Origin: Clostridia bacterium
Lineage (GTDB): Bacteria > Bacillota > Clostridia > Oscillospirales > CAG-272
Direction: 5' to 3'
Length of the DNA stretch: 28,772 nt
Assembly (NCBI GenBank): GCA_017648425.1
Contig: JAGCJD010000174.1
Location: 1-28,772 of the forward strand
Positions within the stretch are counted from its first letter, which is position 1. Every line of letters starts with the position of its first letter. Shown here piece by piece: positions 1,909-24,297 of the stretch. The notes beneath the pieces were generated by a model, which saw only the letters and a program-made list of their open reading frames with translations, was not told the origin of the DNA and did no database searches. Position numbers and translations under genes: made by a program.

Positions 1909-2010
1909 ATATTACCTCCATGAAAACCTTTTCAACTAATAGCATTAATCATGGAGGGCGGTTTTTATACATATATTTTGTTAGAACTTATTTTGGAGGA
2001 AGGGGCAAAA

Positions 2011-2915
2011 ATGACAGAAAATAAAGGCATGGACAAAAGTGTATTTATGCGCGGGCGCGGACTTGACGATGCTCAGGTAGCTGAGGCGCGTGAAAAATAC
2101 GGTAGCAACACGCTTAATGTCAGAAAAAGCAAGAGCTTTTTGAGAAGATTTTTTGAAAATCTAGGCGACCCGGTTATACGAATACTTTTGGTCGCGCTCT
2201 GCGTAAATCTTTTCTTTGTGTTTAAAGGCGGAGATATAGCCGAAACGGTAGGTATAGCCATTTCGGTGTTTCTTGCCGCTTTTATATCTGCTCTCTCGGA
2301 GAGCGGGGGAGAAAATGCGTTTCGCCGATTGTCACGCGAATGCGCGGACGGTGTGTGCCGTGTAAGGCGAAACGGCAGGATAACGACAGTGCCCATAGAC
2401 GAGATAGTTGTGGGGGACATAGTGCTTGTAAGCGCGGGAGAAAGGATACCTGCTGACGGATACATAATAAGCGGAGGTGTATCCGTGGATCAATCCGCGA
2501 TAACCGGGGAGAGCAAGGAAAAAGAAAAAAAGCCCTCGTCGGGGCTTGACCGCTCTCCATCGTCCCCGTCGGCGCTTTTGCGCGGCTGTCCCGTGCTTTC
2601 GGGCGAGGGGGTAATGCAGGTGTTTGCTGTTGGGGATAATAGCTTTTTGGGTAAAATATCAATAGAGGTACAGACCGAAACAAGAGAAAGTCCACTCAAA
2701 CTGAGACTCACCCGACTTGCTCGTCAGATAAGTCGTCTTGGCTATCTTGCGTCTGTTCTTGTATCACTTGCCTTTTTGTTCAATTGCTTTGTAATTGACA
2801 GCGGATTTGAATGGCAGCTCGTTCTTTTAAAGCTCAGAGATATACCTTATTTGCTTGAAAAATTACTTCACGCGTTCATGCTCGGATTAACAATAATAGT
2901 CGTGGCAGTTCCTGA
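2011..2915 (+). pseudogene. 5' half of a PMCA-type Ca2+-translocating P-type ATPase, interrupted by prophage
   Basis: EAREKYGSN, DEIVVGDIV, GERIPADG, VDQSAITGES (actuator TGES), TM segments, then IVVAVP; similarity stops at the PEGL position (reads PDGAP), there is no DKTGT, and the frame runs into non-homologous DNA to a stop at 3081; RBS GGAGG before ATG 2011. Confidence 0.9.
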
Positions 2916-2930
2916 CGGAGCTCCACGACT
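2898..2930. other. Putative attL of the serine-recombinase prophage (central GA dinucleotide 2914-2915)
   Basis: Imperfect inverted repeat agtcgtggcagttcct-GA-cggagctccacgact centred exactly where ATPase homology ends. Confidence 0.7.
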
Positions 2931-2954
2931 TGGCTGTTCTATCCTCACATCTTC

Positions 2955-2983
2955 ATTATACCACATTTTTCGACATCTGTCAA
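2955..2983 (-). promoter_or_regulatory. Outward-facing sigma-A promoter at the prophage left end
   Basis: TTGACA-gatgtcgaaaaatgtgg(17)-TATAAT with TGn extended -10 on the minus strand. Confidence 0.75.
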
Positions 2984-3724
2984 TATTTTTTGTGAAAATT
3001 TTTTCCAAAAATCGCAAAAAAATTCAAAAAACAATTTTTTTCGGGGAGTTTCTCGGGGGTTTTTGGGTAAAAGCTCATTGAAAATCAAGTAAAATTTCTC
3101 TTGAAAAAGAGAAAGAGCCACTGAGTTTTCGTGAAAAACACTTTGCTTTATCTTTCGTATTTCCGATATTTCCTCGGAAATACGCTCATGCTTTGAAAAT
3201 GCTGATATTTCGCCGCGTATCTCTCTCGCGATAAGTATTATATAATAATATATATAATATATAACGCATGCGCGCTCGTGTGTACGCGCTTACGCGCGCT
3301 CTCTCGCGCTCGCCGTGCGCTCGGGGGTGGCGGCGGAACGATCTTTTTTTCTGTCTTGGCTGAATTTGTGTGACCGAGTGAAAGACGATAGCGCTCCTGC
3401 GCCCTCAAAAACTGTCTGTAAGGCTAAAAAGGGGCAGGGGGTGCTGTCTTACCCTGCCCATATGCGTAAAGATTAAAATACAGCGTTTTTCAAAAGACAA
3501 TTTTTTCCACCTTTCGACAACACCGAGAGAGACCATTCCCCCCTTCGGGGGGTAAGGGGGGTCTCTCTCTGTCTTGTATATGTCTTGTAAAAGTTTTGTT
3601 TTGTTTCTGTATTGTTTCTGTTTTGTTTTGGGTTCAACCGATAGAGCTTTTTTTGTAAGATCCGGGAGCTCTTTCGGCGGTGATTTTATTTGCGTTATAA
3701 GTCGATTTATTCGTGCTTTATTTA

Positions 3725-5104
3725 TTACGCTTCGTTGAATGTAACATCAAAGCTTCCGTCCTTGTAAACGACTATCTTTTTGAGCGTTCGTCCCCAAAAT
3801 GCCTTCTTGCTTTCGGGGGTGAGCGAATTATACATCTGTTCAAAATCTTTGAGCTCTTTTATGTTTATGAACTCCTGCTCGCGTATCTCTTGTCTTTGCT
3901 TTGCTTCGTCAAGCTCCGCTTTGAGGGATAGATAATCTCTCTCGTATATCTCCTTTGGAATGAGATCGGAAAGGTACAGATCTTTGAGCTTTTCTATTTT
4001 TGCCATTATCTTTGAGGTGTCGGGCGCTCTTTTGGGCACGGACGCCTTTTTCATTTTTATTTCTATATTGTATTTTTTTGCCTCGGAAATAAGGTTTTCG
4101 ACAAGCCACGCTTCCAGCTTTTGCTGATTTATCTGCTTTTGCATTTCGCATTGGAGCATACTTCTCGCGGAACAGCGGTAATAGATTATAGTCTTTCCCT
4201 TAGTGCCGTCCTTTTTCTTGTTTGCGTAGCTGTATGTGCTCATTCTTCTTCCGCATTCTCCGCAGAACATAAGCCCTGTGAAAATATAGACATTCGAGGT
4301 CCTTGTCATTGTGCGCTGTCCTCGTGTTTCAAGCAGGGAAGCGGTAAGCTCAAAGGTCTTTTTGTCAATTATCGCGGGACACCAATTTTCAATTCCGTAA
4401 GCCTCGCCTATATACCATTTATTGGTGAGCATATGCTTCATGGATTTTGCGTCGATCGTTACGCCGTATTCGGTGAATATGTATCTTGCTGTTTCTTTCA
4501 TGGAGCGGCAGTCGATATACTTATCGAATGTGGCGCGAGCGATGTTTGCCCGCTGTTCGTCAATAACGGCGCGCTTGTTTTCTATTTTATATCCGAGAGG
4601 GGTGCTGCCGGATATAACATGTCCGTCCTTTACCATATTGCTGAAAACGAATTTTATCCTCTCGGAGGTGCGGTCGGACTCGTCCTGCGCTATCGCCAGC
4701 TTTATGTTGAGCGCAAGGCGACCATTGGCGCTTGTCGTGTCGTAATCCTCGTCCGTTGCCAGCCACTGTACCTTGTGCTTATCAAGTATTGCCTGAACCT
4801 CGTAATAGTCGGATACATTACGGAACCAACGGTCAAGCTTGACAAAAAGGACGACATCTATTTTGCCGTCACGCACATCTTGTATCATTCGCATAAATTC
4901 CGGGCGAGCCGTGTATTTCTTTCGCGCGGATATGCCCTCATCGGTATAGTGGTCCACAACGGTGAGGTCGTTCTCCTCGGCGTAACGGGAAAGGCGCTCC
5001 TTCTGAGCGTCAAGAGAAACGCCGTGCTGCGCCTGCTCCTCGGTGGAAACGCGGGAGTAAAGCGCCGCCCGTCTTATGCTGTCGTCAAATCGTTTTACCT
5101 TCAT
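3725..5104 (-). CDS. Large serine recombinase (phage integrase)
   Basis: 459 aa; YSRVSTEEQ catalytic Ser motif, DEGISA, KLDRWFRN, recombinase domain (PLGY), zinc ribbon CGECG...YYRC, coiled coil. Confidence 0.96.
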   Translation of the reverse strand: MKVKRFDDSIRRAALYSRVSTEEQAQHGVSLDAQKERLSRYAEENDLTVVDHYTDEGISARKKYTARPEFMRMIQDVRDGKIDVVLFVKLDRWFRNVSDYYEVQAILDKHKVQWLATDEDYDTTSANGRLALNIKLAIAQDESDRTSERIKFVFSNMVKDGHVISGSTPLGYKIENKRAVIDEQRANIARATFDKYIDCRSMKETARYIFTEYGVTIDAKSMKHMLTNKWYIGEAYGIENWCPAIIDKKTFELTASLLETRGQRTMTRTSNVYIFTGLMFCGECGRRMSTYSYANKKKDGTKGKTIIYYRCSARSMLQCEMQKQINQQKLEAWLVENLISEAKKYNIEIKMKKASVPKRAPDTSKIMAKIEKLKDLYLSDLIPKEIYERDYLSLKAELDEAKQRQEIREQEFINIKELKDFEQMYNSLTPESKKAFWGRTLKKIVVYKDGSFDVTFNEA

Positions 5105-5108
5105 TCTA

Positions 5109-5708
5109 TTAAATCCTTTGCTCTGATTGCGTAACCGTGGAATGCTCTTTTATGTACTGTGAAAAGAGGGAGTACAGCTTTTGCTCGCATGGGTCCGTCA
5201 GAAATTTGTCCTTTGAATAAAGAAGCTGCATACGCCTTGCCCGCTCCTCGGCGACATGACGCTCGACCATGCAATATTTTGCTATATACTCGCATGAGGT
5301 AATCCCCATGCCCCAAAGTACGCATGAGGGGCAGAGAATTCTGCGCGCAAACATATCGGCGTACTTTTCGGATACATATTTATCATTTTCCGTTCGCATA
5401 TTCCAATACTGTGAATATTTTATCTCGTGTTCAAGGTAGTAGTGTCCAAGCTCATGGGCTATGGTATATCGAGAGCACTCTATGGGGGCGAGGTCGTTAT
5501 AAATTATGCACCATGTGCTTCCGTCATAGAACGACCTGCCGTTTTCTCCTGCTCGGAGCAGTTTTACGCTACTGTTCTTTATTACTTTTATGCCCTCCTC
5601 TCTCCTCGCTATTTTGATTATATCAATAGGCAGAGAGCAGAGTTCACTTTTTATGAGGCACTCCCATGAATTGTCCCTTACACACAAATAGTTTTCATAA
5701 GGTCTCAT
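5109..5708 (-). CDS. ImmA/IrrE-family metallopeptidase (anti-repressor)
   Basis: 199 aa; RYTIAHELGH (HEXXH) and EKYADMFA; lies between integrase and repressor as in ICEBs1-type modules. Confidence 0.9.
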   Translation of the reverse strand: MRPYENYLCVRDNSWECLIKSELCSLPIDIIKIARREEGIKVIKNSSVKLLRAGENGRSFYDGSTWCIIYNDLAPIECSRYTIAHELGHYYLEHEIKYSQYWNMRTENDKYVSEKYADMFARRILCPSCVLWGMGITSCEYIAKYCMVERHVAEERARRMQLLYSKDKFLTDPCEQKLYSLFSQYIKEHSTVTQSEQRI

Positions 5709-5734: not shown

Positions 5735-6175
5735 TTATAGCAGTGTGTCGTCGGTTTCGGGAGCATTCTTTATGTCTTTCCAATCATTCTTGCTCATTTT
5801 TACTATTTCGTCCTGCCTTTTGTCAGCGGAGCTTGCCGCCGTGTAAATGCAAACATTGCCGTCTGCTTCAAGTCCGAGCAGACAAAGGACAGCGGGCTGC
5901 ATTTCGGGGTGCATACGGTAAGCGCTGAGTACTCTGAGCTCTATATCGGTAAGGTCGTTGCGCTTTATCTGGGGCTCGGTATCCGCGTTGTCGGCAAAAA
6001 AGTATTCGCGACTTACGCCAAAGTACTGCGCCAGCTTTTCAAGCGTGGTCTTTGAGGGGAGAGTGCCGTTCTTCCATTTAGTTATAGAGCCAGCGGAAAT
6101 GCCGAGCTCCTTTACTACCGCAGAGGGAGTTTTTTGATTTGCCTTGCAAAGCTCGTAAAGATTGTTCCAAAACAT
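5735..6175 (-). CDS. XRE/Cro-CI HTH prophage repressor (ImmR-like)
   Basis: Likely start MFWNNLYELC at 6175 (AAAGGA RBS); HTH TPSAVVKELGISAGSITKWKNGTLP...LEKLAQYFGVS. Confidence 0.88.
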   Translation of the reverse strand: MFWNNLYELCKANQKTPSAVVKELGISAGSITKWKNGTLPSKTTLEKLAQYFGVSREYFFADNADTEPQIKRNDLTDIELRVLSAYRMHPEMQPAVLCLLGLEADGNVCIYTAASSADKRQDEIVKMSKNDWKDIKNAPETDDTLL

Positions 6176-6223
6176 AGTGATATTTCCTTTCTTGCATGTT
6201 CTTCCGTAAATTTTATCAGTTTG

Positions 6224-6305
6224 TTTCACATATGGTGAAATAAATTATATATTTCACTGAAAATGAAAAATACATATTGACATTTCATTGAAAGTGAATT
6301 ATAAT
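6224..6305. promoter_or_regulatory. Lysis-lysogeny switch: three 17-bp operators and rightward promoter
   Basis: TTTCAC-atatg-GTGAAA (6224-6240), TTTCAC-tgaaa-ATGAAA (6252-6268), TTTCAT-tgaaa-GTGAAT (6283-6299); the third fills the spacer of TTGACA(6277-6282)-17-TATAAT(6300-6305). Confidence 0.85.
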
Positions 6306-6420
6306 GTTAACACTGTCAAACAAAACAGACATAATTTCACCCAAAAGAATATATTTAACATCATTGTATCACAAAAATTATGCTGTGTCAATAAAAACAA
6401 TAAAAAAAGGAGGTAGAAAA

Positions 6421-6615
6421 ATGTTAAACGGAAAGCTTGTGAGAACGCTCATGAGAGCCAAGGGATACAGTGGCAGAGAGCTTGCGGCAAGGGTAGGGAT
6501 AAGCGAGTCCATGATGTCTTATATTCTGCAAGGGCTCAGAGAGCCGAATGTGCAGACGCTGGTCCGAATTGCCAACGAGCTTGGCTGTTCGCTTGACGAA
6601 ATGATAATAAGATGA
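6421..6615 (+). CDS. Cro-like HTH regulator
   Basis: AGGAGG RBS, ATG 6421; 64 aa with GYSGRELAARVGISESMMSYILQGLREPN...RIANELGCSLD. Confidence 0.9.
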   Translation: MLNGKLVRTLMRAKGYSGRELAARVGISESMMSYILQGLREPNVQTLVRIANELGCSLDEMIIR

Positions 6616-6675: not shown

Positions 6676-6834
6676 ATGAAGGGTATGACGGCATCAATAA
6701 AGAACGAGCCGAACATGAATTACATAATGAAGGTGCTCTGCGAGCAGCTCTCCCGACAGGAGATAGGCTCGTACGAATATTCGTACAAATTGGAAAGAAA
6801 GGAGAATTGTTTAAAAAATGCAGAACAGGCGTAA
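6676..6834 (+). CDS. Small hypothetical phage protein (52 aa)
   Basis: Below track cutoff; GGGAGG RBS, MKGMTASIKNEPNMNYIMKVLCEQLSRQ..., overlaps the next start. Confidence 0.55.
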   Translation: MKGMTASIKNEPNMNYIMKVLCEQLSRQEIGSYEYSYKLERKENCLKNAEQA

Positions 6835-7138
6835 GCAAGAAAGACAGACACAGCTGACGCTCGAGCTTGGAAGCGGAGTACAGCTCTCAGAGGCTCAGCT
6901 TTGCAGTGTCGTGTCGCTTGTGGTGGGGCTTGAATACCGCAAGGAAAGGCACGGCGCGTGGGCGCTTGACCAAGAGCATTCGAGCAAAAAGTATTTAAGG
7001 TGGAGGTGCAGCGCCTGCGGACACTGGCAGTCGTCAAGGCGTAACGATAAGAGTGAGCAGATATTTTACATGAATTACTGTCCATTCTGTGGTTCGCAGA
7101 TGGACAAGCCCGCAAGGGAGAGGGCTGAGCAGATATGA
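6818..7138 (+). CDS. Phage zinc-ribbon protein
   Basis: RHGAW...RCSACG...NYCPFCGSQMD (two CxxC pairs); AAGGAG RBS. Confidence 0.8.
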   Translation: MQNRRKQERQTQLTLELGSGVQLSEAQLCSVVSLVVGLEYRKERHGAWALDQEHSSKKYLRWRCSACGHWQSSRRNDKSEQIFYMNYCPFCGSQMDKPARERAEQI

Positions 7139-11665: not shown

Positions 11666-13558
11666 ATGAATCCATTTAAAACGCTGATAAAGCATGCTCC
11701 TTTGCCAGGAAGCAGGACGATACAAAAGGAAGAATCGGAGGATATAAAGGAAAGCGGAACGGTCGTGGACGAAAAACGCATAGGCGAGTGGATAGCTACG
11801 CTTCGCAGATACAAGAGCGCAAAAGCAACGATAGAGCAAAAGCTTAAAAGCAACGAGAGATTTTGGAGAATGCGACAGTGGAAGGAGGGAGCGCCCGAGG
11901 ACAAGAATGGCATTCCCGCGACAGCATGGCTGTTCACCTGCATACAGTCTAAGCTTGCCGATGCGGTGGAGGCATATCCGAGAGCAAATTTCAGACCGCG
12001 ACAGAGGGACGATGCGGAGGAGGCGAGAATGCTTTCAAGCGTGTGTCCTATAATCGTGGATCAGACAGGATTTAGAAAGACATATAAGAATGTTGCGGAA
12101 TATACGCTTAAAAACGGAGTGGGCGTATATCACATATGGTGGGACGGCGCAAAGCACAACGGACTTGGAGATATAGCTATATCCGAGCAGAATGTGCTTA
12201 ATATATTTTGGGAGCCTGGCATAACGGATATTCAAAGATCAACCTATGTTTTTACTGTGGAGGTCGTTGATATAAGTATACTGCGACACAGATACCCCGA
12301 GCAAGCTCCTAGGATAAAGAGCAAGGTTATTGATGTGAGCAGGTTTATAACAGACGAAAGGGTGGATACGCACGATAAGGTCGTGGTGGTAGATGTCTAT
12401 TACAAGGTAAACGGCGCGCTTCATTACGCAAAGATCGCTGACAATGTATTACTGGAATCGACTGAGAACTGCCCCGAGAGATATCCTTACGGGCTTTATA
12501 AGCACGGAAAATATCCTTTTGTCGTGCAACAGCTCTATCACATAGAGCAGAGCCTTTACGGAACGGGACTTGTGGATATCGGCGCAGATGCGCAGATACA
12601 GATAGACCTTATAAACGAGGCTGTTGTGGAAAACACATTGATGGGAGCAAAACCAAGGTATTTTTCGCAGGTGGGCAACAATTTCAGAGATGAGGATCTG
12701 CTCGATTGGAGAAAAGCGATAGTGCCTTGCGCATCAATATCTGACACCGCATTAAAGCCGATAGAGAGTAAATCCTTGCAGGGCAACTACCTTGATTTTT
12801 TGAACATGAAAACGCAGGAGCTTAAATTTGTTACCTCAAATCAAGATATAAACAACGGCATGGCGCCCTCGGGTATAACTGCCGCTTCGGCATTGGCGGT
12901 GTTGCAGGAGGGAGCGGGACGCTCGTCAAGATTTATCAACAGGACCTTTTATGACGCGTTCTTGGAGGTCATGGAGTTTGTTGTTGAGCTTATGAGAGAA
13001 TTTTACAACACTCAGAGGTGGTTCAGGGTAGCTTCCGATGAGATGGGCGGAGAGGAGGATTTTGTAAGGTATGATAACACGGCGCTTAAAGGCGCTGTCC
13101 AGCTCCTTGAAAATGGGACACAGGCGTACAGAGTTCCCGAGTTTGATATTGAGATAACGGCAGAAAGGGCAAGTCCTTACAAAAAAATGGAGATGAATGA
13201 GCTTGCATTGACATTCTTTAAAATGGGCTTTTTTACTCCGCAAATGACCGATCAGGCAATAGCGTGCTTGTCGATAATGGATTTTGACGGCAAAGAGGAG
13301 ATCATGGACACTATCCGACAAAACGGAGTTCTTGCTGACCGCGTACAGATGCTTCAAGAGCTTGGCATAGCTCTTGCAGCTAAATACAAGGACGCAGAGG
13401 CAATGATGGCGTTACAGCAGAGCTTGGGCGGAGGGGCGCAGTCTATACCGAGCGCAGATGTGGATATACATAGCGCCGTTGCCCCCGATAAAGGCGCGGG
13501 AGAGATAAAGCAGGTGGAGAGGGCGAGAGCTATGGCAAGGAGCAATATCGAGGTATAG
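11666..13558 (+). CDS. Portal protein
   Basis: 630 aa after terL; NFRPRQRDDAEEA, NIFWEPG, YPFV...YGTGLVD, helical repeat pattern. Confidence 0.85.
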   Translation: MNPFKTLIKHAPLPGSRTIQKEESEDIKESGTVVDEKRIGEWIATLRRYKSAKATIEQKLKSNERFWRMRQWKEGAPEDKNGIPATAWLFTCIQSKLADAVEAYPRANFRPRQRDDAEEARMLSSVCPIIVDQTGFRKTYKNVAEYTLKNGVGVYHIWWDGAKHNGLGDIAISEQNVLNIFWEPGITDIQRSTYVFTVEVVDISILRHRYPEQAPRIKSKVIDVSRFITDERVDTHDKVVVVDVYYKVNGALHYAKIADNVLLESTENCPERYPYGLYKHGKYPFVVQQLYHIEQSLYGTGLVDIGADAQIQIDLINEAVVENTLMGAKPRYFSQVGNNFRDEDLLDWRKAIVPCASISDTALKPIESKSLQGNYLDFLNMKTQELKFVTSNQDINNGMAPSGITAASALAVLQEGAGRSSRFINRTFYDAFLEVMEFVVELMREFYNTQRWFRVASDEMGGEEDFVRYDNTALKGAVQLLENGTQAYRVPEFDIEITAERASPYKKMEMNELALTFFKMGFFTPQMTDQAIACLSIMDFDGKEEIMDTIRQNGVLADRVQMLQELGIALAAKYKDAEAMMALQQSLGGGAQSIPSADVDIHSAVAPDKGAGEIKQVERARAMARSNIEV

Positions 13559-16292: not shown

Positions 16293-16661
16293 ATGACAAT
16301 ACTTGAAGCCATAAGCAAAGCAGACGAATTCAGAAACAACAGAATAGAAGCGGCGGTAAAGATAGCGATGCTCTCGGAGCTGGACGGGCGGATATACGCC
16401 GAGGTAATAGAGGGAACGAACGCCTTTGAGGGATATAATGAAAGTACGCCAATGGACACGGAGCTTATCGTGCCGTATCCTTACGATGCCTTATATATAA
16501 GCTATTTGGAGTCGGAGATTTGCAGAATAAGCGGAGAAATGTCCAAATACGCTATCGCACGGAGCATATTTGCCGAAAAGTATGAATCGTTTAAGGCGTG
16601 GTATATCCGCTCCCACGAATACAACAAGCCAAACATAAAAATTCCTGTAAGGAGGTATTGA
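16293..16661 (+). CDS. Head-tail adaptor-like protein
   Basis: 122 aa, AGGAGG RBS, position after capsid, ELIVPYPYD.LY..YL motif. Confidence 0.65.
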   Translation: MTILEAISKADEFRNNRIEAAVKIAMLSELDGRIYAEVIEGTNAFEGYNESTPMDTELIVPYPYDALYISYLESEICRISGEMSKYAIARSIFAEKYESFKAWYIRSHEYNKPNIKIPVRRY

Positions 16662-16663
16662 GC

Positions 16664-18790
16664 ATGATATTGCCTGAGCTTCCCATACCAAACCAGACCA
16701 AGGAGATAATACAGACCTTTGGCGGATATAATCACAATATAAGAATAGCGGACAATGAATTTTTTAACATGAGGAATTTATCTGTTATCGGATATCCGAC
16801 ATTAAGTCCAAGGCAAAAGAGAGGGATAGTAAAGAGCCTTCCCGACTGTAATGGATTACTCTCAAAGGACAAGTTGGCGTATATAAGCGGCAATAAGCTT
16901 TACTATGGAGAACAAGAGTTCGCGCTCAACGAAGGCATAACAGAGGAGCGTCAGATAGTTTCAATGGGCGCTTATATCCTTGTGTTTCCTGACGAATATT
17001 ATGTAAACACAAAGGATACGACCGATCATGGAAGCATAAGCGGAGGGTATTACGAGTTAAATACAGAGAACGAGGATCTTTCGTTTTATTTATCAACGGT
17101 TGAGGGAAACGAGGTTCACCCCCTTTACATAACGAAAAAAGGTTCTGCGTCACAGAGCGACGAGGTTGCCGTATGGGAGCTTTTGCAAAGCTTAAAAAAC
17201 AATCGCAAAATATCCACGACAGATAACTGTTATGTTGCAATAAGGAGTGACGGTAACTCGCCTATCGAGGTAACGCTTCCGTTTGACAATACGAATGGCT
17301 CGAACAAGTCGAATTATGTATATATACAAGACCAATCGGTAGCCCAGATAAAGGAAAAAAATATGCAAGGGACAGTTTTTACGCCACTGAAAAGCGGTAT
17401 AACAACGGTCGAGGTAGGACTTGGCTCGGGAAGCGCGACATATTCACGGTATTATTACATAATCGTAAAGGACACGGCAGATCCCACCGATGGAGAATAT
17501 TGGCTTCAAACGGACGGAGATAGCGAGGTCGGTCAGCTCTATGTAGCATCAGGCGGAAGATGGGAGGCAATAAAAAGCTGTATAAAGGCAAAAAGCGGAA
17601 TGCCTTTTGCTAAGGAGGCGTTTGCAAGGCTGAAACAACAAAAAACTTGCAGACTGAGGATTTCAAGCGACAAAGAGGCTTTGCAATATATAACAAAGAA
17701 ATATTCGGAATTGAATGCCTTTGATCCTATAAGCTGTGGGGAAGACTATTTCTTGCTTGAAGGAAGCTTAAATAATTGCTCGTTTGTTGCAATGCCAAGC
17801 AACACCAAAATAGAACTAAGCTTAGATCTTCCCGAAATGGATTTTGTTATGGAAAGCGGAAACCGCTTGTGGGGCTGTAAATACGGGCTGAACAAGGAGG
17901 GGGATTTTTTGAACGAGATATATGCCTCCGAGCTTGGGAATTTCTTTTCGTGGTATTCATTCAAGGGCATATCCACCGATAGCTACGCGGCATCGGTAGG
18001 TACGGACGGAGTGTTTACCGGCGCGGTGAATTACAAAGGTAAGCCGATATTCTTTAAAGAGAATTGCACGCATTCCATATACGGCTCGTATCCCTCCAAT
18101 TTTCAAATAAGCACCGAAGCGGGTATTGGCTTGGAGGAAGGCTCGGCAAGGAGCTTGTGTATTGTCAACAACGCATTGTACTATAAGGCAACGGACGGTG
18201 TGTACAGATACGATGGCGCATCGTATGATAAGCTCTCATTTGCTCTCGGAGATGTTTCTTACAGCAATGCATCAGGGGGGAGCATTGACAATAAGTATTA
18301 TATAGCAATGACGAGCGAGGAGGGAAAAAGAGAGCTGTTCGTATATGATATATCCAAGGGCTTGTGGCACAAGGAGGACGAAGTACAAGCATATTACTTT
18401 GCCCGTCACAAAAACGACCTTTACTTTTACGACAACAGCTCTAAGTATTTGTATACGGTAAAGGCGTCAGAGGGAGAAGCGGAGAGCGATCCTATCACAT
18501 GGGAAGCGGAAACAGGGCCTATCGGCTACAACACGATAGATGCAAAATATCTTGACAAGATACAGCTCCGAATATCTCTGCCTGTCGGAAGCGCTGTCAG
18601 ATTTTTTATAGAATATGACACGGACGGATATTTTGAGTATTTTGGAAATATCACGGGAAAATCAAGTCAGGCGTTCACTCTGCCGTTGTTTCCGCGCAGA
18701 TGCGATCATTTCAGACTGAGACTCAACGGAGAGGGCGAGTGTAAGATATTCAGCCTTATAAAGGTCATAGAGGACGGAGGCGAGCTGTAA
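16664..18790 (+). CDS. Tail/stabilisation (nozzle-like, beta-propeller) protein of podovirus type
   Basis: Start at ATG 16664 after AAGGAGG; beta-rich with repeated Y..DG and WH..D motifs; C-terminal RRCDHFRLRLNGEG. Confidence 0.72.
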   Translation: MILPELPIPNQTKEIIQTFGGYNHNIRIADNEFFNMRNLSVIGYPTLSPRQKRGIVKSLPDCNGLLSKDKLAYISGNKLYYGEQEFALNEGITEERQIVSMGAYILVFPDEYYVNTKDTTDHGSISGGYYELNTENEDLSFYLSTVEGNEVHPLYITKKGSASQSDEVAVWELLQSLKNNRKISTTDNCYVAIRSDGNSPIEVTLPFDNTNGSNKSNYVYIQDQSVAQIKEKNMQGTVFTPLKSGITTVEVGLGSGSATYSRYYYIIVKDTADPTDGEYWLQTDGDSEVGQLYVASGGRWEAIKSCIKAKSGMPFAKEAFARLKQQKTCRLRISSDKEALQYITKKYSELNAFDPISCGEDYFLLEGSLNNCSFVAMPSNTKIELSLDLPEMDFVMESGNRLWGCKYGLNKEGDFLNEIYASELGNFFSWYSFKGISTDSYAASVGTDGVFTGAVNYKGKPIFFKENCTHSIYGSYPSNFQISTEAGIGLEEGSARSLCIVNNALYYKATDGVYRYDGASYDKLSFALGDVSYSNASGGSIDNKYYIAMTSEEGKRELFVYDISKGLWHKEDEVQAYYFARHKNDLYFYDNSSKYLYTVKASEGEAESDPITWEAETGPIGYNTIDAKYLDKIQLRISLPVGSAVRFFIEYDTDGYFEYFGNITGKSSQAFTLPLFPRRCDHFRLRLNGEGECKIFSLIKVIEDGGEL

Positions 18791-18800
18791 TGAGCATACC
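18741..18800 (+). repeat. attL core of nested element (60 bp)
   Basis: gtaagatattcagccttataaaggtcatagaggacggaggcgagctgtaatgagcatacc identical to 24093-24152. Confidence 0.95.
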
Positions 18801-18945
18801 GTTTACGGCAAGCATAAATCCCAAGGGGAAAAACACCGACGAGGTACAGCGCGACTTGATAAGGCAGTTGCAGATACAGAACAGAGAACTGAAAATTATC
18901 ATTGAGGATCTGTACAAGCAAATAAACAAAATCGGAGAGGGCTGA
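18790..18945 (+). CDS. 51-aa virion-module protein, element-borne allele
   Basis: MSIPFTASINPKGKNTDEVQRDLIRQLQIQNRELKIIIEDLYKQINKIGEG; 37/51 aa identical to 24142-24297. Confidence 0.85.
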   Translation: MSIPFTASINPKGKNTDEVQRDLIRQLQIQNRELKIIIEDLYKQINKIGEG

Positions 18946-18964
18946 AAGGCGATTTTTGACGTTT

Positions 18965-18992
18965 TACCCCTTATTTTACCCCTTATAGAATT
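18965..18992. repeat. Putative integrase arm-type sites (left copy)
   Basis: taccccttattttaccccttatagaatt, 27/28 identical to 23956-23983. Confidence 0.75.
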
Positions 18993-19124: not shown

Positions 19125-20288
19125 TTACGCTTTCATTTTCTCGTAGTAATTTTGCAAACGGTCTGCGCTGTCCTTTTTCATCTTTTCGGACACGTGAGCG
19201 TAAACGTTAAGAGTGAACGCGGCTGTGGCGTGACCGAGCGCTTCCTGTACGGTTTTCGGATTGTCCCCTTCTTGCAAAGCTGTGACGGCGTATGTGTGGC
19301 GCAGATCGTGAAATCTGAAATCGGGACATCCTATTTTTGTGCACACTCTTTTGAAATATGTGTGGAGCATATTCTCGTTGATGTATTTTCCGTCAGCACG
19401 CGTGAATACGAGATTCCAATCGTTTTTCCACCCCAAGCCTACCGCCAAGTGGTTTTTAAATTGCTCTTGGCGAACTCTTTGCAAAATATCCATGACGAAC
19501 GGCGCAGGCGTAAGCGTTCGTGATTTGTTGCTTTTTGGTGTTGAAATATACGGTTGCTCTCCGCGTTGCAAAGTGGTTTGTAATTGTTGCTTGACCGTAA
19601 CAGTTCCGTTCTTGAAATCAACCGCGTCCCACGGCAGTCCCAGCACCTCGCCTCTGCGCATTCCTGTGAATAGAGTGACCAAGAATATGTCTTTGTACGG
19701 AGACGGAAGCGGCTCATCCTCAACGGCTTGCAGAAAGTTGCGAAGTTCTTCTTCCGTGAGCGGGTGCATTTCTTTTTTTTCTTTTGCGGGGAGCTTGCAA
19801 GCGCTTGACGGATTTACGCTTATGTATTTTAACTCTACTGCTTGTTCAAGGGAATAGTGGAGTGTTGCGTGACAGTGTCGTGTTGTTGTCGCTGATAACC
19901 TTTTATTGAGCTGATTGTAAAAGGCTTGTATGTGCGTCGGGGTGAGCGCTTGAAGCTTGATATAGCCTAACTGTGGCTTTATGTAGCGCTCTATATATGC
20001 TTTTTGATTTACGTAAGTACTGCGCTTCACGGTCTGCTTGTAGTATTCCTCTAACCAGATGTCCACCCACTGCCCGACGGTCAGCCTGCTCGGCTCAACG
20101 AACGTTCCCTCGTCTCCCGACTTCTGCGCTTGCCTCATTTGCTTCAAGACTTCCTTTTGCGTGTCGGCGTAAAAGGAACGTCGCTTGCCGGCTATCGTAC
20201 AGCGAGCTTCCCACCGACCGTCCTCACGTTGGCGGACGGAACCGCCGCCCTTTGCATTTCTCTTGTCCTGATGAATAGTGTCTGCCAT
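19125..20288 (-). CDS. Tyrosine recombinase/integrase (ICEBs1/Tn916-like)
   Basis: N-terminal RQREDGRWEAR arm-binding domain; catalytic TGMRRGE, FHDLRH, LGH, TLNVYAH. Confidence 0.96.
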   Translation of the reverse strand: MADTIHQDKRNAKGGGSVRQREDGRWEARCTIAGKRRSFYADTQKEVLKQMRQAQKSGDEGTFVEPSRLTVGQWVDIWLEEYYKQTVKRSTYVNQKAYIERYIKPQLGYIKLQALTPTHIQAFYNQLNKRLSATTTRHCHATLHYSLEQAVELKYISVNPSSACKLPAKEKKEMHPLTEEELRNFLQAVEDEPLPSPYKDIFLVTLFTGMRRGEVLGLPWDAVDFKNGTVTVKQQLQTTLQRGEQPYISTPKSNKSRTLTPAPFVMDILQRVRQEQFKNHLAVGLGWKNDWNLVFTRADGKYINENMLHTYFKRVCTKIGCPDFRFHDLRHTYAVTALQEGDNPKTVQEALGHATAAFTLNVYAHVSEKMKKDSADRLQNYYEKMKA

Positions 20289-20291
20289 TTC

Positions 20292-21038
20292 TTAAATCTC
20301 CTTTTCTGTTTGTGTGTTGAATGTTTTGTCGAGCTTGTCCATAAACCACTTTTCGTAGTATTCGCCTCTCTCACGCTCCGCATCGGCGCGCTCGGACGTG
20401 CGCTCGTTCGCGTCCTGTATAGCCCATAGGCGTATCGTTACGTAGTGATCGTCGTATTTGTACCCCTTGCTTTTGAGCTTCGCGGAGAAGTTTTCGATAA
20501 GAGTGTCGGCTTTGTCCCCAAACTGCTTTTTCAGATCCTCATGCTCCGCTTCGGTCAGATAGACGTTCTTAAATTCTCCGTATGCCTTTTTATCGGGAGA
20601 GGGCGTTCTCGCGCGTGTACGCGCATTTATACTCTCTCCCTCGTAGAGGGAAGAGTGTAAATAGTTATCTGTATTCTGTTTACCGTTATCTGTATTCTGT
20701 TTACCGTTATCTGTATTCTGTATTCCGTATTCTGTAGCTGACTTTTGCTGTGGCTCTGTTTCCTCTTGCTGTGCTTTGCTGTTTTTTGCCGTAGCAAAAC
20801 CGCCTTGCTGTCCTGCTCTGCGCCGAAGCTCCGAAATCTCCTCACCACGTTTGATTTGGTGGAACATTATGGAGACCACGACCCGGAGCGTACCGTCCAC
20901 GTTATCGATAGGGTTACTCCCGTGACGGTGGTAATCTGATATAGCCTTGACTACCTTCCATGCGTCTGCGCCGTCGAGCTGGTCAAGGTCGTCTATCCAA
21001 TCGTAGAACAGATAAAATGCTTTTTCGTTGTCCTTCAT
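20292..21038 (-). CDS. Replication initiator / replisome organiser (DUF6291-like N-terminus)
   Basis: KAFYLFYDW...; internal iteron-like 21-bp repeats; C-terminal YGEFKNVYLTEAE...YDDHYVTIRLWA. Confidence 0.78.
   Translation of the reverse strand: MKDNEKAFYLFYDWIDDLDQLDGADAWKVVKAISDYHRHGSNPIDNVDGTLRVVVSIMFHQIKRGEEISELRRRAGQQGGFATAKNSKAQQEETEPQQKSATEYGIQNTDNGKQNTDNGKQNTDNYLHSSLYEGESINARTRARTPSPDKKAYGEFKNVYLTEAEHEDLKKQFGDKADTLIENFSAKLKSKGYKYDDHYVTIRLWAIQDANERTSERADAERERGEYYEKWFMDKLDKTFNTQTEKEI
20664..20737. repeat. Iteron-like tandem repeats (putative origin) inside initiator gene
   Basis: gttatctgtattctgtttacc x2 plus one degenerate copy; core gtattctgt occurs five times. Confidence 0.8.
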
Positions 21039-21244
21039 ACCGCCGCTGCGCTTGCCTCCGCTTCAAGCCATTTGCAAAGACTATCGACGGGTATCACTAT
21101 GCGTCGCTCCGATACTCGGACGGCGGGGAAGCCCCTGCGCTTTATAAGCTCGTAAGCTACGGGTTTGGATACTCCAAGTACTTTTGCGAGTTCTGCAACG
21201 TCAAGCACGAGCTTGTCGGTTTGGGTAAGTATTGCTGTTGTCAT
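21035..21244 (-). CDS. Excisionase-like HTH (HTH_17 type)
   Basis: VLDVAELAKVLGVSKPVAYELIKRRGFPAVRVSERRIVIP...L.KWL. Confidence 0.88.
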   Translation of the reverse strand: MTTAILTQTDKLVLDVAELAKVLGVSKPVAYELIKRRGFPAVRVSERRIVIPVDSLCKWLEAEASAAAV

Positions 21245-21375
21245 TTGTTTATCCTCTCTTTCGTGTTTTTGATTTTGTGTGACAGCTCCTCGGCTGTCGT
21301 TGCGGTATTTACTGCCTCTGCCGTTTCCCTCAAGCGGACGGTGAATGCGAGAACGTAAGCAATCAGAGTCCTCAT
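21241..21375 (-). CDS. Small hypothetical protein (44 aa)
   Basis: MRTLIAYVLAFTVRLRETAE...; ATGA overlaps with both neighbours. Confidence 0.55.
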   Translation of the reverse strand: MRTLIAYVLAFTVRLRETAEAVNTATTAEELSHKIKNTKERINK

Positions 21376-21686
21376 TCAGTGCCTCTTTCCGGCTTTTCCA
21401 TCTGCGCCCCGCAGAATGGGCAGTAGTTCATGTAGAAGATCTTATCGGACATTCCGCCCTTGGTTGCGGACTGCCAGTGTTCGCACTCTGAACAGATCCA
21501 TCTGACGAATTTTTTGCTCTCGAAGCTCTCATCGGGAAGCCACACGCCGTGGCGCTCTTTTCTGTATTCCTCAGCTGCGAGTGTGTAAGCGAGTTTTTTT
21601 GCCCGGCTTTTGCTCAGCTCGGGTGCCTCAAGCAAAAATTCCGTAAGCTCTTTGGTGCGCTCTCGTAGTCTTTTATCGGTTATCAT
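21372..21686 (-). CDS. Zinc-ribbon protein, homologue of prophage 6818-7138
   Basis: 39/62 identical residues over the C-terminal region by manual alignment. Confidence 0.85.
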   Translation of the reverse strand: MITDKRLRERTKELTEFLLEAPELSKSRAKKLAYTLAAEEYRKERHGVWLPDESFESKKFVRWICSECEHWQSATKGGMSDKIFYMNYCPFCGAQMEKPERGTE

Positions 21687-21689
21687 GCT

Positions 21690-22082
21690 TCATTCCTCCG
21701 TGATTTTTGGATTAAGTATTGCCTGGGCGAAAATATCCGCCTGGCGTTCGACGTGCCGACCGTGTCTGATACGCTGAAGCTCAAGGTATCGCTCAAAGCG
21801 TTCGTGCTCCTCTCTGTGCTTTAGGAAGTAGTGCCCCAGCTCATGAGCCACGGTAAACCGCTTTTGAGAGTGCGTTCTCGTATCGTCGTATACGATTATG
21901 CTCTTATCGTTATGGCAAAATATCCTGCCGTACTCTGTTGGGCATAGCAATCGCACGTCGCTGTTTTTGTATACTTTTATGCCCTCGCCCCGGGCGAGTT
22001 CCAGAACGTCGAACGGTACCGTATCGATACCGTGCTCGCGCAGGACCGAGAGTGCATATTCGGGTATATCTTTGTTTCTCAC
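21690..22082 (-). CDS. ImmA/IrrE-family metallopeptidase (short form)
   Basis: RFTVAHELGH, ERQADIFA; shares EGIKV.KNS.V.LL with 5109-5708. Confidence 0.88.
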   Translation of the reverse strand: MRNKDIPEYALSVLREHGIDTVPFDVLELARGEGIKVYKNSDVRLLCPTEYGRIFCHNDKSIIVYDDTRTHSQKRFTVAHELGHYFLKHREEHERFERYLELQRIRHGRHVERQADIFAQAILNPKITEE

Positions 22083-22092
22083 GATGTGCCCC

Positions 22093-22290
22093 TCAATGCG
22101 TCATGTAGTAACGGTACGCCTCTGTCGCGGTCATATCGTCCCACGCCCATTTAAGGGCGCAGGTGAGCTTGTCAATGGTTGCTCTGTCTATCTGATCGTC
22201 GGGGTATTGCTCGTTCCATTCGTTCACTGCTCTCATGATATATCCCAACATTACGCAGTTCTGCGTTCCGTCCCAATTCTGTATTTCCAT
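22093..22290 (-). CDS. Hypothetical protein (65 aa)
   Basis: In operon, GGAG RBS. Confidence 0.65.
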   Translation of the reverse strand: MEIQNWDGTQNCVMLGYIMRAVNEWNEQYPDDQIDRATIDKLTCALKWAWDDMTATEAYRYYMTH

Positions 22291-22302: not shown

Positions 22303-22578
22303 TTACGCTATCGAGAAGCGACGTGTGGTCGTCGTCTTTGTGTACTGCTCTGCCAGCTTGGGCATAGCTTTCTTGAATGCCGTTGTGTCAAAGCGTGAGC
22401 CGTTGACGGTAGTCCATCTTACTTTGAACACGTCCACGTTAAGCTCTTCCGTGTTGCGCGCGGTCATTTCCGCCTTGATAGTGTCTTCGAGCGCGGCGAT
22501 CTCTGCTGCGATCTGCTCTGCAAATGCTTTAAGCTCTTTAAGCTCTCTTACTGTGTTTGTCATTTCGTTTGTACTCAT
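22303..22578 (-). CDS. Coiled-coil hypothetical protein resembling the C-terminal part of YqaJ-like proteins
   Basis: AAGGAG RBS; EIAALEDTIKAEM...RFDTTAFKKAMP.L..QY.KTT..RRF. Confidence 0.65.
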   Translation of the reverse strand: MSTNEMTNTVRELKELKAFAEQIAAEIAALEDTIKAEMTARNTEELNVDVFKVRWTTVNGSRFDTTAFKKAMPKLAEQYTKTTTTRRFSIA

Positions 22579-22772: not shown

Positions 22773-22900
22773 TTGACAAATCCGCCTTTTCGTGGTACAA
22801 TGTAGGAGCGAGAGAGGAAAGGCGAACGTCGAAACCTCTCTGCTCCGATTGAACTGGTCGCTCGGTGCTGTGGTAAGTGAGCCGAGCGACCTTGTTTTTT
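22773..22900 (+). ncRNA. Candidate ~95-nt small RNA with own promoter and terminator
   Basis: TTGACA(22773-22778)-17-TACAAT(22796-22801), hairpin ggagcgagagagg/cctctctgctcc, terminator ggtcgctcgg/ccgagcgacc plus T tract. Confidence 0.6.
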
Positions 22901-23054
22901 ACTTGCTTGCTATGTAGTCAAGCAGTTCGACGATTTGGCTGTCAGACCAACCGACGTGGTGGAGATACTCGATAAGCTTCTTCAGCGTGCTGTCGCTCAT
23001 CATCTCGGCATCAGTCCTTTCGTTTACGTTTTCGTGTATGTTCGCCTTATTCAT
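22899..23054 (-). CDS. Small hypothetical protein (51 aa), first gene of the element's leftward operon
   Basis: MNKANIHENVNERTDAEMMSDSTLKKLIEYLHHVGWSDSQIVELLDYIASK; purine-rich RBS; alternative start at 23003. Confidence 0.55.
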   Translation of the reverse strand: MNKANIHENVNERTDAEMMSDSTLKKLIEYLHHVGWSDSQIVELLDYIASK

Positions 23055-23125: not shown

Positions 23126-23254
23126 ATTATAGCATATCGTACCCGATATGTCAAGAGACTTTTTGGAAAATATCGGGTACAATATTTCACAAACATTTTT
23201 GAAAATTTTTGTGCAATTTGTATATTGTCCCCGATATGTGGTTTGTGGTATAAT
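23126..23254. promoter_or_regulatory. Divergent promoters with three 16-bp operators (element switch)
   Basis: Leftward TTGACA-17-TATAAT (23154-23126); rightward extended -10 TGGTATAAT (23246-23254); operators atatcgtacccgatat 23134-23149, atatcgggtacaatat 23170-23185, atattgtccccgatat 23222-23237. Confidence 0.85.
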
Positions 23255-23279: not shown

Positions 23280-23486
23280 ATGCCAGCATCAAAAGCAAAC
23301 CAAAAAGCGGTCGCAAAATACATGAAAGCAAACTATGACGATATTAAGGTCAGAGCCCCAAAGGGAAAGCGAGACCTGATACAAGCTCATGCAAAGTTAC
23401 AGAATGAAAGTACAAATGCGTTTATCAACCGCGCGATAGACGAGACTATCGAGAGGGACAATGTAAAAGAAAAGGGAGAGGGCTGA
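23280..23486 (+). CDS. Ribbon-helix-helix (Arc-like) repressor
   Basis: Start MPASKANQKAVAKY at 23280; YDDIKVRAPKGKRDLIQAHA...STNAFINRAIDE. Confidence 0.75.
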   Translation: MPASKANQKAVAKYMKANYDDIKVRAPKGKRDLIQAHAKLQNESTNAFINRAIDETIERDNVKEKGEG

Positions 23487-23955
23487 CAGCTCTCTCCGTT
23501 TTTGGTTGGCGAGTAAAAGGTGTTTTAATGCCCCTCACGCGCGCGAGGATTGCGTGTACGCGCGTTAAATAGGTAGGGTGGACTACTACACTCTCGCGCA
23601 TACGCAGGACAGAGGGGTTTTTGAGGGTATCGTGTGCGTACGTGCGTATATGGGTGTGTGTACATCCGTAACGAGAGGGCGAAAGAGGGCACACCGGGAA
23701 CGTTCGGAACGTGAGCTGCGCCATCGATACCGATTTATGCCCGGCATATGGCGACCGTCGCGCCGATGGAATGTGAGGTAACTTTCCGAGAGATCTTCGA
23801 GAGATCTTTTTTGCGTTCAATATCTCGGTACGGAGATGGAAAAGTGAACCCCGAAAAGCACGTCGCGATCGAGAGGGATTTTTGCCCCGAAAAATACCCC
23901 GAAAAAGAGGGCAAAAAAGGGTGAAAAACGGGCGTGATTTTTTACCCCCGATTTC

Positions 23956-23983
23956 TACCCCTTATTTTACCCCTTACAGAATT
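23956..23983. repeat. Putative integrase arm-type sites (right copy)
   Basis: taccccttattttaccccttacagaatt. Confidence 0.75.
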
Positions 23984-24092: not shown

Positions 24093-24152
24093 GTAAGATA
24101 TTCAGCCTTATAAAGGTCATAGAGGACGGAGGCGAGCTGTAATGAGCATACC
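24093..24152 (+). repeat. attR core of nested element (60 bp)
   Basis: Identical to 18741-18800. Confidence 0.95.
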
Positions 24153-24297
24153 CTTTACCGCAGAAATCAATCCAAAAGGAATAACAGCCGATGAGGTTCA
24201 GAGAGATTTGATACGACAGCTTAGAACGCAGAACAAGGAGCTTGCAGTAATTATAAAGGATCTATATGAGCAGATAGAAAAGATAAAGGGAGGGTAA
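24142..24297 (+). CDS. 51-aa virion-module protein, probable native phage allele
   Basis: MSIPFTAEINPKGITADEVQRDLIRQLRTQNKELAVIIKDLYEQIEKIKGG; followed by phage terminator and late promoter. Confidence 0.85.
   Translation: MSIPFTAEINPKGITADEVQRDLIRQLRTQNKELAVIIKDLYEQIEKIKGG

Follow-up and report, generated by a model that had tools for sequence, protein, structure and literature searches.

What does an ImmA-type protease do when its gene lies on a small integrase element that carries no repressor partner for it? Proteases of this type are the main SOS-independent switch of Firmicutes prophages and conjugative elements, where they have been examined as pairs of repressor and protease in which a sensor is built in. 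The locus considered here lies in a 28,772-nt stretch of DNA from a Clostridia bacterium (Oscillospirales, CAG-272; GCA_017648425.1, contig JAGCJD010000174.1), the whole of which is called the window below. A preliminary description of the window proposed that the protease of a satellite element could cleave the ImmR repressor of the surrounding prophage and induce this helper.

The left part of the window contains the remains of a host gene and the immunity region of the helper prophage, as follows.

1951-3081: host P-type ATPase gene, of which only the N-terminal part is left (N-terminal and actuator domains, then a stop).
3725-5104, minus strand: serine recombinase of the prophage.
5109-5708, minus strand: full-length ImmA of the prophage (helper), 199 aa.
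5735-6175 (longest ORF to 6229), minus strand: XRE-type ImmR of the prophage, the proposed substrate.
6304-6615, plus strand: Cro-like XRE protein of the prophage, the sole XRE-family protein in the window besides ImmR.

Beyond the Cro-like gene, the prophage continues with early genes, followed by the terminase, portal and capsid genes and by the gene of a 730-aa protein (16598-18790). ImmR is likely to start at Met19 of the longest ORF (position 6175), as its homologue does on contig L001, one of the related contigs treated below. The ATPase ORF ends just ahead of the serine-recombinase end of the prophage, which appears to have been inserted into this host gene. The metagenome-assembled genome is 76% complete and contains two M78 genes, both of them within the window.

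In the late region of the helper, a 5,352-bp insertion separates the 730-aa gene from a 51-aa gene. It is bordered by direct repeats (18741-18932 and 24093-24284) that share 77% identity overall, with the first ~62 nt identical, and it has the following parts.

18741-18803, plus strand: left att core, identical to 24093-24155.
18963-18985 and 23941-23976: arm-type repeats TTTACCCCTTA, on both sides of the element.
19125-20288, minus strand: tyrosine integrase, in the distal part of the M78 operon.
20292-21038, minus strand: DUF6291 initiator with 21-bp iterons, in the distal part of the M78 operon.
21035-21244, minus strand: HTH_17 protein, in the distal part of the M78 operon (19125-21244).
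21372-21686, minus strand: 104-aa zinc-finger protein, starting at an ATG 3 nt beyond the M78 stop; its RBS is within the last M78 codons.
21690-22082, minus strand: short M78/ImmA-like peptidase, 130 aa, with HELGH at 80-84 and Glu112, and without the C-terminal HTH-like subdomain.
22093-22290, minus strand: 65-aa ORF directly upstream of the M78 gene, its stop overlapping the M78 RBS; without a family match and without an HTH.
22303-22578, minus strand: 91-aa coiled-coil protein (phrog_6244), 56-91% identical across related elements.
22899-23054, minus strand: 51-aa ORF that opens the leftward operon; it is also conserved in L001 and L004.
23280-23486, plus strand: Arc/RHH-like protein of 68 aa, the presumed element repressor, divergent, with a terminator hairpin at 23475-23497.
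24093-24155, plus strand: right att core.

In transcription order, the minus-strand genes encode the 51-aa ORF, the 91-aa protein, the 65-aa ORF, the short M78 protein, the zinc-finger protein, a 44-aa ORF, the HTH_17 protein, the DUF6291 initiator and the tyrosine integrase. Profile searches of the element's ORFs found no capsid, terminase or other structural genes. The element has the layout of a helper-embedded satellite, being an integrase element in the helper late region with capsid and terminase genes of its own absent. It resembles the helper-embedded PICIs (PMC10111431) in being a small integrase element within the late-gene region of a presumed helper prophage; these, however, are Gram-negative, rely on AlpA and Bro-type regulation and lack an ImmA-like protease, whereas the present element belongs to gut Clostridia and has an RHH switch. 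In four DNA sequencing runs of gut metagenomes, the contigs showed neither joints of excision nor an empty site, and no RNA run was listed as containing the locus. Contigs of two gut metagenome runs (X2 and X3) match the element to the right of position 22264 and diverge leftward, toward the 65-aa and M78 genes; this may point to mosaic variants whose protease region differs. Three 21-bp iteron-like direct repeats (20664-20736) lie inside the DUF6291 gene, where a repetitive peptide is encoded. BLASTP aligns the zinc-finger protein with the product of a prophage early gene (6818-7138) at 47% identity over 100 aa, which is nearly the full length and not the C-terminal part alone.

Besides the window, five contigs carry the same type of element, namely L001, L004, L179, L180 and, in part, L182. 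As far as the contigs reach, the shared order is the divergent RHH gene, the 91-aa gene, the short M78 gene, usually the zinc-finger gene, a small ORF, HTH_17, DUF6291 and the integrase. The L001 element (within L001:5971-11892) neighbours a related ImmR/ImmA prophage and begins ~1 kb beyond its tyrosine integrase; the ImmR and ImmA of this prophage are 47% and 50% identical to those of the window prophage. The L001 element lies outside the virion operon and has att sites of its own, 49-nt repeats at 6933-6981 and 11844-11892 that span the start of a 75-aa gene. A tblastx hint that its right flank is a host ATPase gene was not confirmed by Pfam. L004 is a 5,454-bp metagenome contig with a 119-nt terminal overlap, self-closing at 5,335 bp, which is compatible with a circle. 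The arm-type repeats of L004 flank a ~140-aa coiled-coil gene in place of the 51-aa gene, suggesting that the att cassette holds a different captured phage gene in each lineage.

The short M78 ORF is open on the minus strand from a GTG start, with GAGGGG 6 nt upstream. Its product matches the Pfam profile Peptidase_M78 (PF06114) with 41.2 bits against a cut-off of 22, and is assigned to the Peptidase M78/ImmA-IrrE superfamily (PF06114, COG2856) by this profile and by an HEXXH motif with a downstream Glu as the predicted third zinc ligand. The HELGH motif is followed by ERQAD..FA starting at residue 112, and the chain ends 18 residues past E112. The residues H80, E81, H84 and E112 are invariant in alignments of 8 and 14 sequences; in an alignment of 43 sequences E81, H84 and E112 are invariant and H80 is conserved in at least 90%. 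The likeness to the helper's protease pointed out in the preliminary description is borne out, as all three motif strings quoted there occur in both proteins and BLASTP aligns the short protein to the prophage ImmA with 36% identity over 121 aa (E 3e-23). This alignment ends at residue 128 of 130 in the short protein and at residue 130 of 199 in ImmA, so that about 70 C-terminal residues are lacking; the loss itself had been recognised correctly, and its size had been put too low, at ~55 aa. According to the alignment and to the domain scheme of PprI (PMC10904395), the lost ~70 residues correspond to an HTH-like subdomain, which in this family comes after the peptidase domain. The gene is therefore predicted to encode only the zinc-peptidase core of an ImmA-type protease, with the catalytic residues intact.

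Structural comparison gave matches over residues 1-88 of the chain. In a profile search of the PDB the best match among solved structures was CapP (E 3.6e-17). The AF2 model of the short protein (pLDDT 93) superposes through residues 1-88 on the M. tuberculosis XRE-M78 regulator 6cz6 (Z 9.1), IrrE 3dti (Z 7.2) and CapP 7t5t (Z 6.5), and a long helix (89-123) that contains E112 falls outside all three alignments. This helix does not superpose on the solved M78 structures, which limits an active-site reading of the truncated form. Foldseek, run with the model against the PDB, returned no match at E 0.001 or better. Over residues 1-88 the model of the short protein resembles the peptidase fold of IrrE/PprI-DdrO and CapP-CapH (Z 6.5-7.2), whereas those systems have HTH and ssDNA-binding GAF-like sensor domains and a paired XRE substrate gene (PMC10904395; bioRxiv 10.64898/2026.05.16.725639), and the short M78 has neither. 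In PADLOC, the matches to capP (positions 3-114 of 242) and RmrA (its central part) cover the peptidase core alone, defence partner genes are absent, and neither NCBIfam nor PADLOC gave a system-level assignment. The locus therefore lacks both the GAF-like or fused XRE domain and the adjacent defence operon of CapP/CapH or RosmerTA (RmrA).

The loss of the C-terminal subdomain and the unusual packing of the predicted Glu112 helix would also suit a non-catalytic decoy, a core that binds ImmR or the activating signal without cutting, blocks the helper ImmA and stabilises lysogeny. We consider this very improbable: all four zinc and catalytic residues are invariant, or nearly so, throughout a clade whose members share as little as about 40% identity, and a pure binder would not need them.

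The clade in question is a defined one. Word-indexed and exhaustive searches recovered a small family, with identities to the short M78 of 61-99% for seven cluster representatives (125-134 aa) and of 41-54% for more distant short members (109-148 aa). In an exhaustive search, all matches of at least 42% identity were tail-less, ending within 15 residues of the equivalent of residue 125. A single-protein search of GTDB genomes and IMG/VR gave no close relatives, and a search of genomes, viral contigs and JGI metagenomes with the short-form alignment recovered ordinary ImmA alone, at 41% identity or less; the loci of these ordinary proteins were used as the baseline set. In a maximum-likelihood tree of 131 core domains, 24 tail-less rows and two further sequences of 133 and 145 aa form one clade (support 99/96). 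The clade falls inside a larger group of ImmAs from Clostridia phages (support 90/95), to which the ImmAs of the window prophage and of L001 also belong. This placement indicates that the short M78 descends from the ImmA lineage of Clostridia phages by loss of the C-terminal HTH-like subdomain, and the tail-less orphan clade is a new variant among ImmA proteins. Pairwise dN/dS, calculated for pairs with unsaturated dS, is 0.13-0.19, which points to retention of the orphan gene by purifying selection in a rare family of ~5-kb integrase elements. A decaying, functionless remnant of a captured helper immA might have been expected from a gene that is shorter than canonical ImmA and lacks its partner. 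That explanation is scarcely credible and already contradicted by the selection and clade data: the dN/dS values are low, the tail-less clade is monophyletic, and both the synteny and the RBS with translational coupling are conserved. Judged by these patterns, the short M78 is not a decayed fragment.

Orphan status was assessed with an XRE-HTH profile that was built iteratively from ORFs upstream of ordinary ImmA genes and used in a six-frame scan. In the window, it detected 5738-6244 (minus strand) and 6298-6612 (plus strand) alone, that is, the prophage ImmR and the Cro-like gene; it detected nothing in the window element or in the related elements L004, L179 and L180. The L001 element likewise carries no XRE repressor gene. 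Pfam likewise found no HTH_3-type protein among the element's ORFs. The sole repressor-like protein of the element is the 68-aa Arc/RHH-like product, and the claim that the protease is an orphan, in an element whose only repressor is of RHH rather than XRE type, has withstood both searches. The baseline from public loci makes the departure plain. More than 40 aa follow the Glu helix in 196 of 215 ordinary relatives, and 15 aa or fewer in just one of the 215; of the long-tailed relatives, 184 have enough upstream sequence for a check, and 144 of these are immediately preceded by an XRE ORF. Two features of a canonical ImmA, the C-terminal HTH-like subdomain (for a total of about 170-200 aa) and an XRE gene immediately upstream, are thus missing from the short M78. 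Compared with ImmA/ImmR of ICEBs1 and phi105 (M78, COG2856), it has a homologous zinc-peptidase core with HEXXH and the downstream Glu, and it too is located on an integrative element, in an operon ending with the integrase gene. It differs from them in the absence of an adjacent or co-transcribed XRE ImmR and of the C-terminal HTH-like subdomain of ~70 aa. Moreover, their immA is made together with its repressor, whereas the short M78 gene lies behind a repressed promoter.

The control region of the leftward operon was annotated as follows.

22773-22801, plus strand: antisense promoter, near-consensus.
Within 22773-22900, plus strand: two-hairpin RNA of ~100 nt ending in a T-run (-49.7 kcal/mol, z -5.45).
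23126-23154, minus strand: leftward operon promoter, TTGACA, 17-nt spacer, TG (extended -10) and TATAAT, 12/12 to the sigma-70 consensus.
23134-23149, 23170-23185 and 23222-23237: three palindromic operators, ATATYG-N4-CRATAT, over both divergent promoters.
23225-23254, plus strand: RHH gene promoter.

Three operator palindromes were found where 0.01 were expected. The position of the leftward promoter is constant in five elements, and the palindrome varies among them, being ACTGTGTACAGT in L001, L004 and L180 and ACATT..AATGT in L179. The operator classes match the classes of RHH protein, defined by the N-terminal arm and beta-strand, in 3/3 cases, and these paired classes would amount to immunity types among the elements. 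Since the operators covary with the RHH class while the promoter stays fixed, the comparison supports the RHH protein as the probable repressor and the M78 operon as repressed. The placement of the gene in a repressed leftward operon, asserted beforehand, is upheld by the consensus promoter and the covarying operators. The predicted two-hairpin RNA lies antisense to the leader of the leftward transcript, ahead of the 91-aa, 65-aa and M78 genes, and may add a second gate on the operon; Rfam recognised no family in the element, this RNA included. Homologues of the RHH protein (36-40% identity in the alignment) are followed by a Fic/Doc-family gene in two other elements, overlapping in L018:11719-12572 and 15 nt downstream in L185:9967-10854. 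Unlike these homologues, the RHH gene of the window stands alone ahead of its terminator.

With this operon architecture a feed-forward loop is possible, in which the protease would cut a regulator of its own element (the Arc-like protein, or the 51-, 65- or 91-aa product), so that leaky expression would lock the active state by positive feedback. Such a role would be in keeping with the normal action of ImmA-type proteases inside their own element and with the conservation of the gene in elements whose sole repressor is RHH-type. Against it, the protease is not co-transcribed with the repressor and would be absent when a trigger is needed, and no M78 protease is known to cleave a non-XRE repressor (PMC6872733; PMC10904395). 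A further argument against it concerns the 91-aa product. Its gene is widespread, being present in 50 of 401 genomes of the order, and at 24 other loci, each in a different genome, no M78 gene occurs within about 1.5 kb; the 91-aa protein is therefore not a specific M78 partner. Its family is often met among the early genes of phages and mobile elements, where it is not tied to M78. On balance, we regard cleavage of an own regulator as unlikely. A functional triad of the 91-aa, M78 and zinc-finger proteins was also considered and rejected, given the same 24 loci. For the 91-aa protein, AF2 gave a poor model (pLDDT 63.6). An Atlas feature search yielded unnamed clusters alone.

The short M78 genes of more distant clade members lie in early operons of other kinds. 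L185 is a ~10-kb serine-recombinase element with two tandem short M78 genes after YqaJ, RecT and an S24 peptidase, its XRE repressor being 5 kb away from them; in L183 a short M78 gene follows a Cro-like gene. In both, the genes belong to early operons and lie away from the repressor gene. Genome G036 has a short M78 gene after an S24-like gene and one canonical M78 elsewhere. Each of the tandem genes of L185 (6782-8435) covers its own half of the Pfam profile, one of them positions 44-122 and the other positions 4-86. Direct succession of a short M78 gene to an S24 (LexA/UmuD-like) peptidase gene was seen in two other element types (L185:6782-8435 and L018:10014-10771).

Location in an early operon, as in L185 and L183, would fit a protease aimed at some other target, such as a host XRE regulator, an early or structural protein of the helper (interference) or the repressor of a competing prophage, with takeover or competition rather than helper induction as its role. 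The adjoining, translationally coupled zinc-finger gene adds to this argument, since its product copies a helper early gene (47% identity), suggesting a helper-directed tool kit. A candidate substrate is lacking, however, as is a defence-system partner, the PADLOC matches to capP and RmrA being confined to the peptidase core. We judge this alternative rather unlikely, if somewhat less so than cleavage of an own regulator.

It is quite possible, though short of probable, that the short M78 is an expression-gated protease acting in trans on an ImmR-type repressor of the helper, an interpretation drawn by analogy with characterised relatives. To our knowledge, all characterised M78 substrates are XRE-family repressors; as the element has no XRE protein, the ImmR-type repressor of the helper prophage would be the most likely substrate, and this is the weakest step of the argument. 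The XRE proteins nearest to the element are the helper ImmR and the Cro-like protein. In the quiescent state, as the architecture would have it, the Arc-like protein shuts the leftward promoter and the protease is absent. Because its gene lies behind a repressed promoter, the protease would be made only after derepression or upon entry into a new cell, and derepression, or entry into a cell without the Arc-like repressor, would result in a burst of it. Signal sensing is the task of the C-terminal domains in IrrE/PprI and CapP, and the active site and substrate surface are on the peptidase domain (PMC10904395; bioRxiv 10.64898/2026.05.16.725639). PprI deprived of the GAF-like domain, with the peptidase and HTH domains kept, retains basal cleavage and loses ssDNA sensing (PMC10904395), and the substrate-binding surface has been located on the peptidase domain (bioRxiv 10.64898/2026.05.16.725639). 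By analogy with these proteins, the short form could be a signal-independent protease that is controlled by expression alone, with basal cleavage and docking of the substrate preserved. Cleavage of ImmR would derepress or commit the helper and provide the element with replication, excision and packaging functions, which would make the short M78 a proteolytic counterpart to P4 epsilon or to MpaR of Listeria. The most natural setting would be an element entering a helper lysogen, as with P4 epsilon acting on P2.

Circumstantial support for cleavage of the helper ImmR in trans comes from the two helper-element pairs examined, the window element being inside an ImmR/ImmA prophage and the L001 element beside one, and from the co-residence of short and canonical M78 in G036. 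The early-operon placement of short M78 genes in L185 and L183, away from the repressor gene, is in line with it too. Several considerations weigh against it. The helper carries a complete ImmA of its own and so has no need of a protease from outside; the short protein is just 36% identical to that ImmA, so that shared specificity is not to be assumed. The comparison covers only two helper-element pairs, and the four metagenome runs gave no excision joints. An embedded satellite is copied passively once the helper fires, and it may not need to trigger the helper at all. Finally, a protease whose expression awaits derepression of the element could not act as the first sensor.

The notion of a satellite that triggers its helper is not new in itself. 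The preliminary description had spoken of a reversal of the usual direction, in which the helper induces the satellite, and such a reversal has two precedents: the E (epsilon) protein of P4 derepresses the helper prophage P2 (PMC2995052), and MpaR of the Listeria monocin cleaves the CI-like repressor of a cohabiting prophage (PMC6872733). P4 E provides the logic proposed here, an early function of a satellite that derepresses the helper prophage on entry, but it binds the P2 C repressor, is not a protease and has no sequence relationship to the short M78 (PMC2995052). MpaR is an ImmA-like protease on a phage-derived element and would be the direct precedent for the proposed action in trans. 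It adjoins its own CI-like repressor, however, and the prophages that depend on it have no protease (PMC6872733), whereas the present element has no XRE protein and its helper has an ImmA (5109-5708).

A bolder version of cleavage in trans, more doubtful than cleavage of the helper ImmR as such, would make the tail-less clade a dedicated satellite weapon, a protease made in a burst and independent of a signal that cuts the ImmR of helper-type prophages and sets the timing of the helper for a 5-kb element. If true, P4 epsilon would have its first proteolytic equivalent, and this would be the first case in which a protease lost its sensor domain so as to work by expression alone. The clade defined by the analysis is a conserved one of ImmA-type proteases that have neither a partner nor a sensor subdomain, and the minimal elements carrying them live in or next to ImmR/ImmA prophages of gut Clostridia. 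Should the helper repressor be the target, gut prophages could be induced at the command of their parasites, and substrate recognition would require no more than the peptidase core; if the target is another protein, the family would gain its first non-XRE or non-self substrate.
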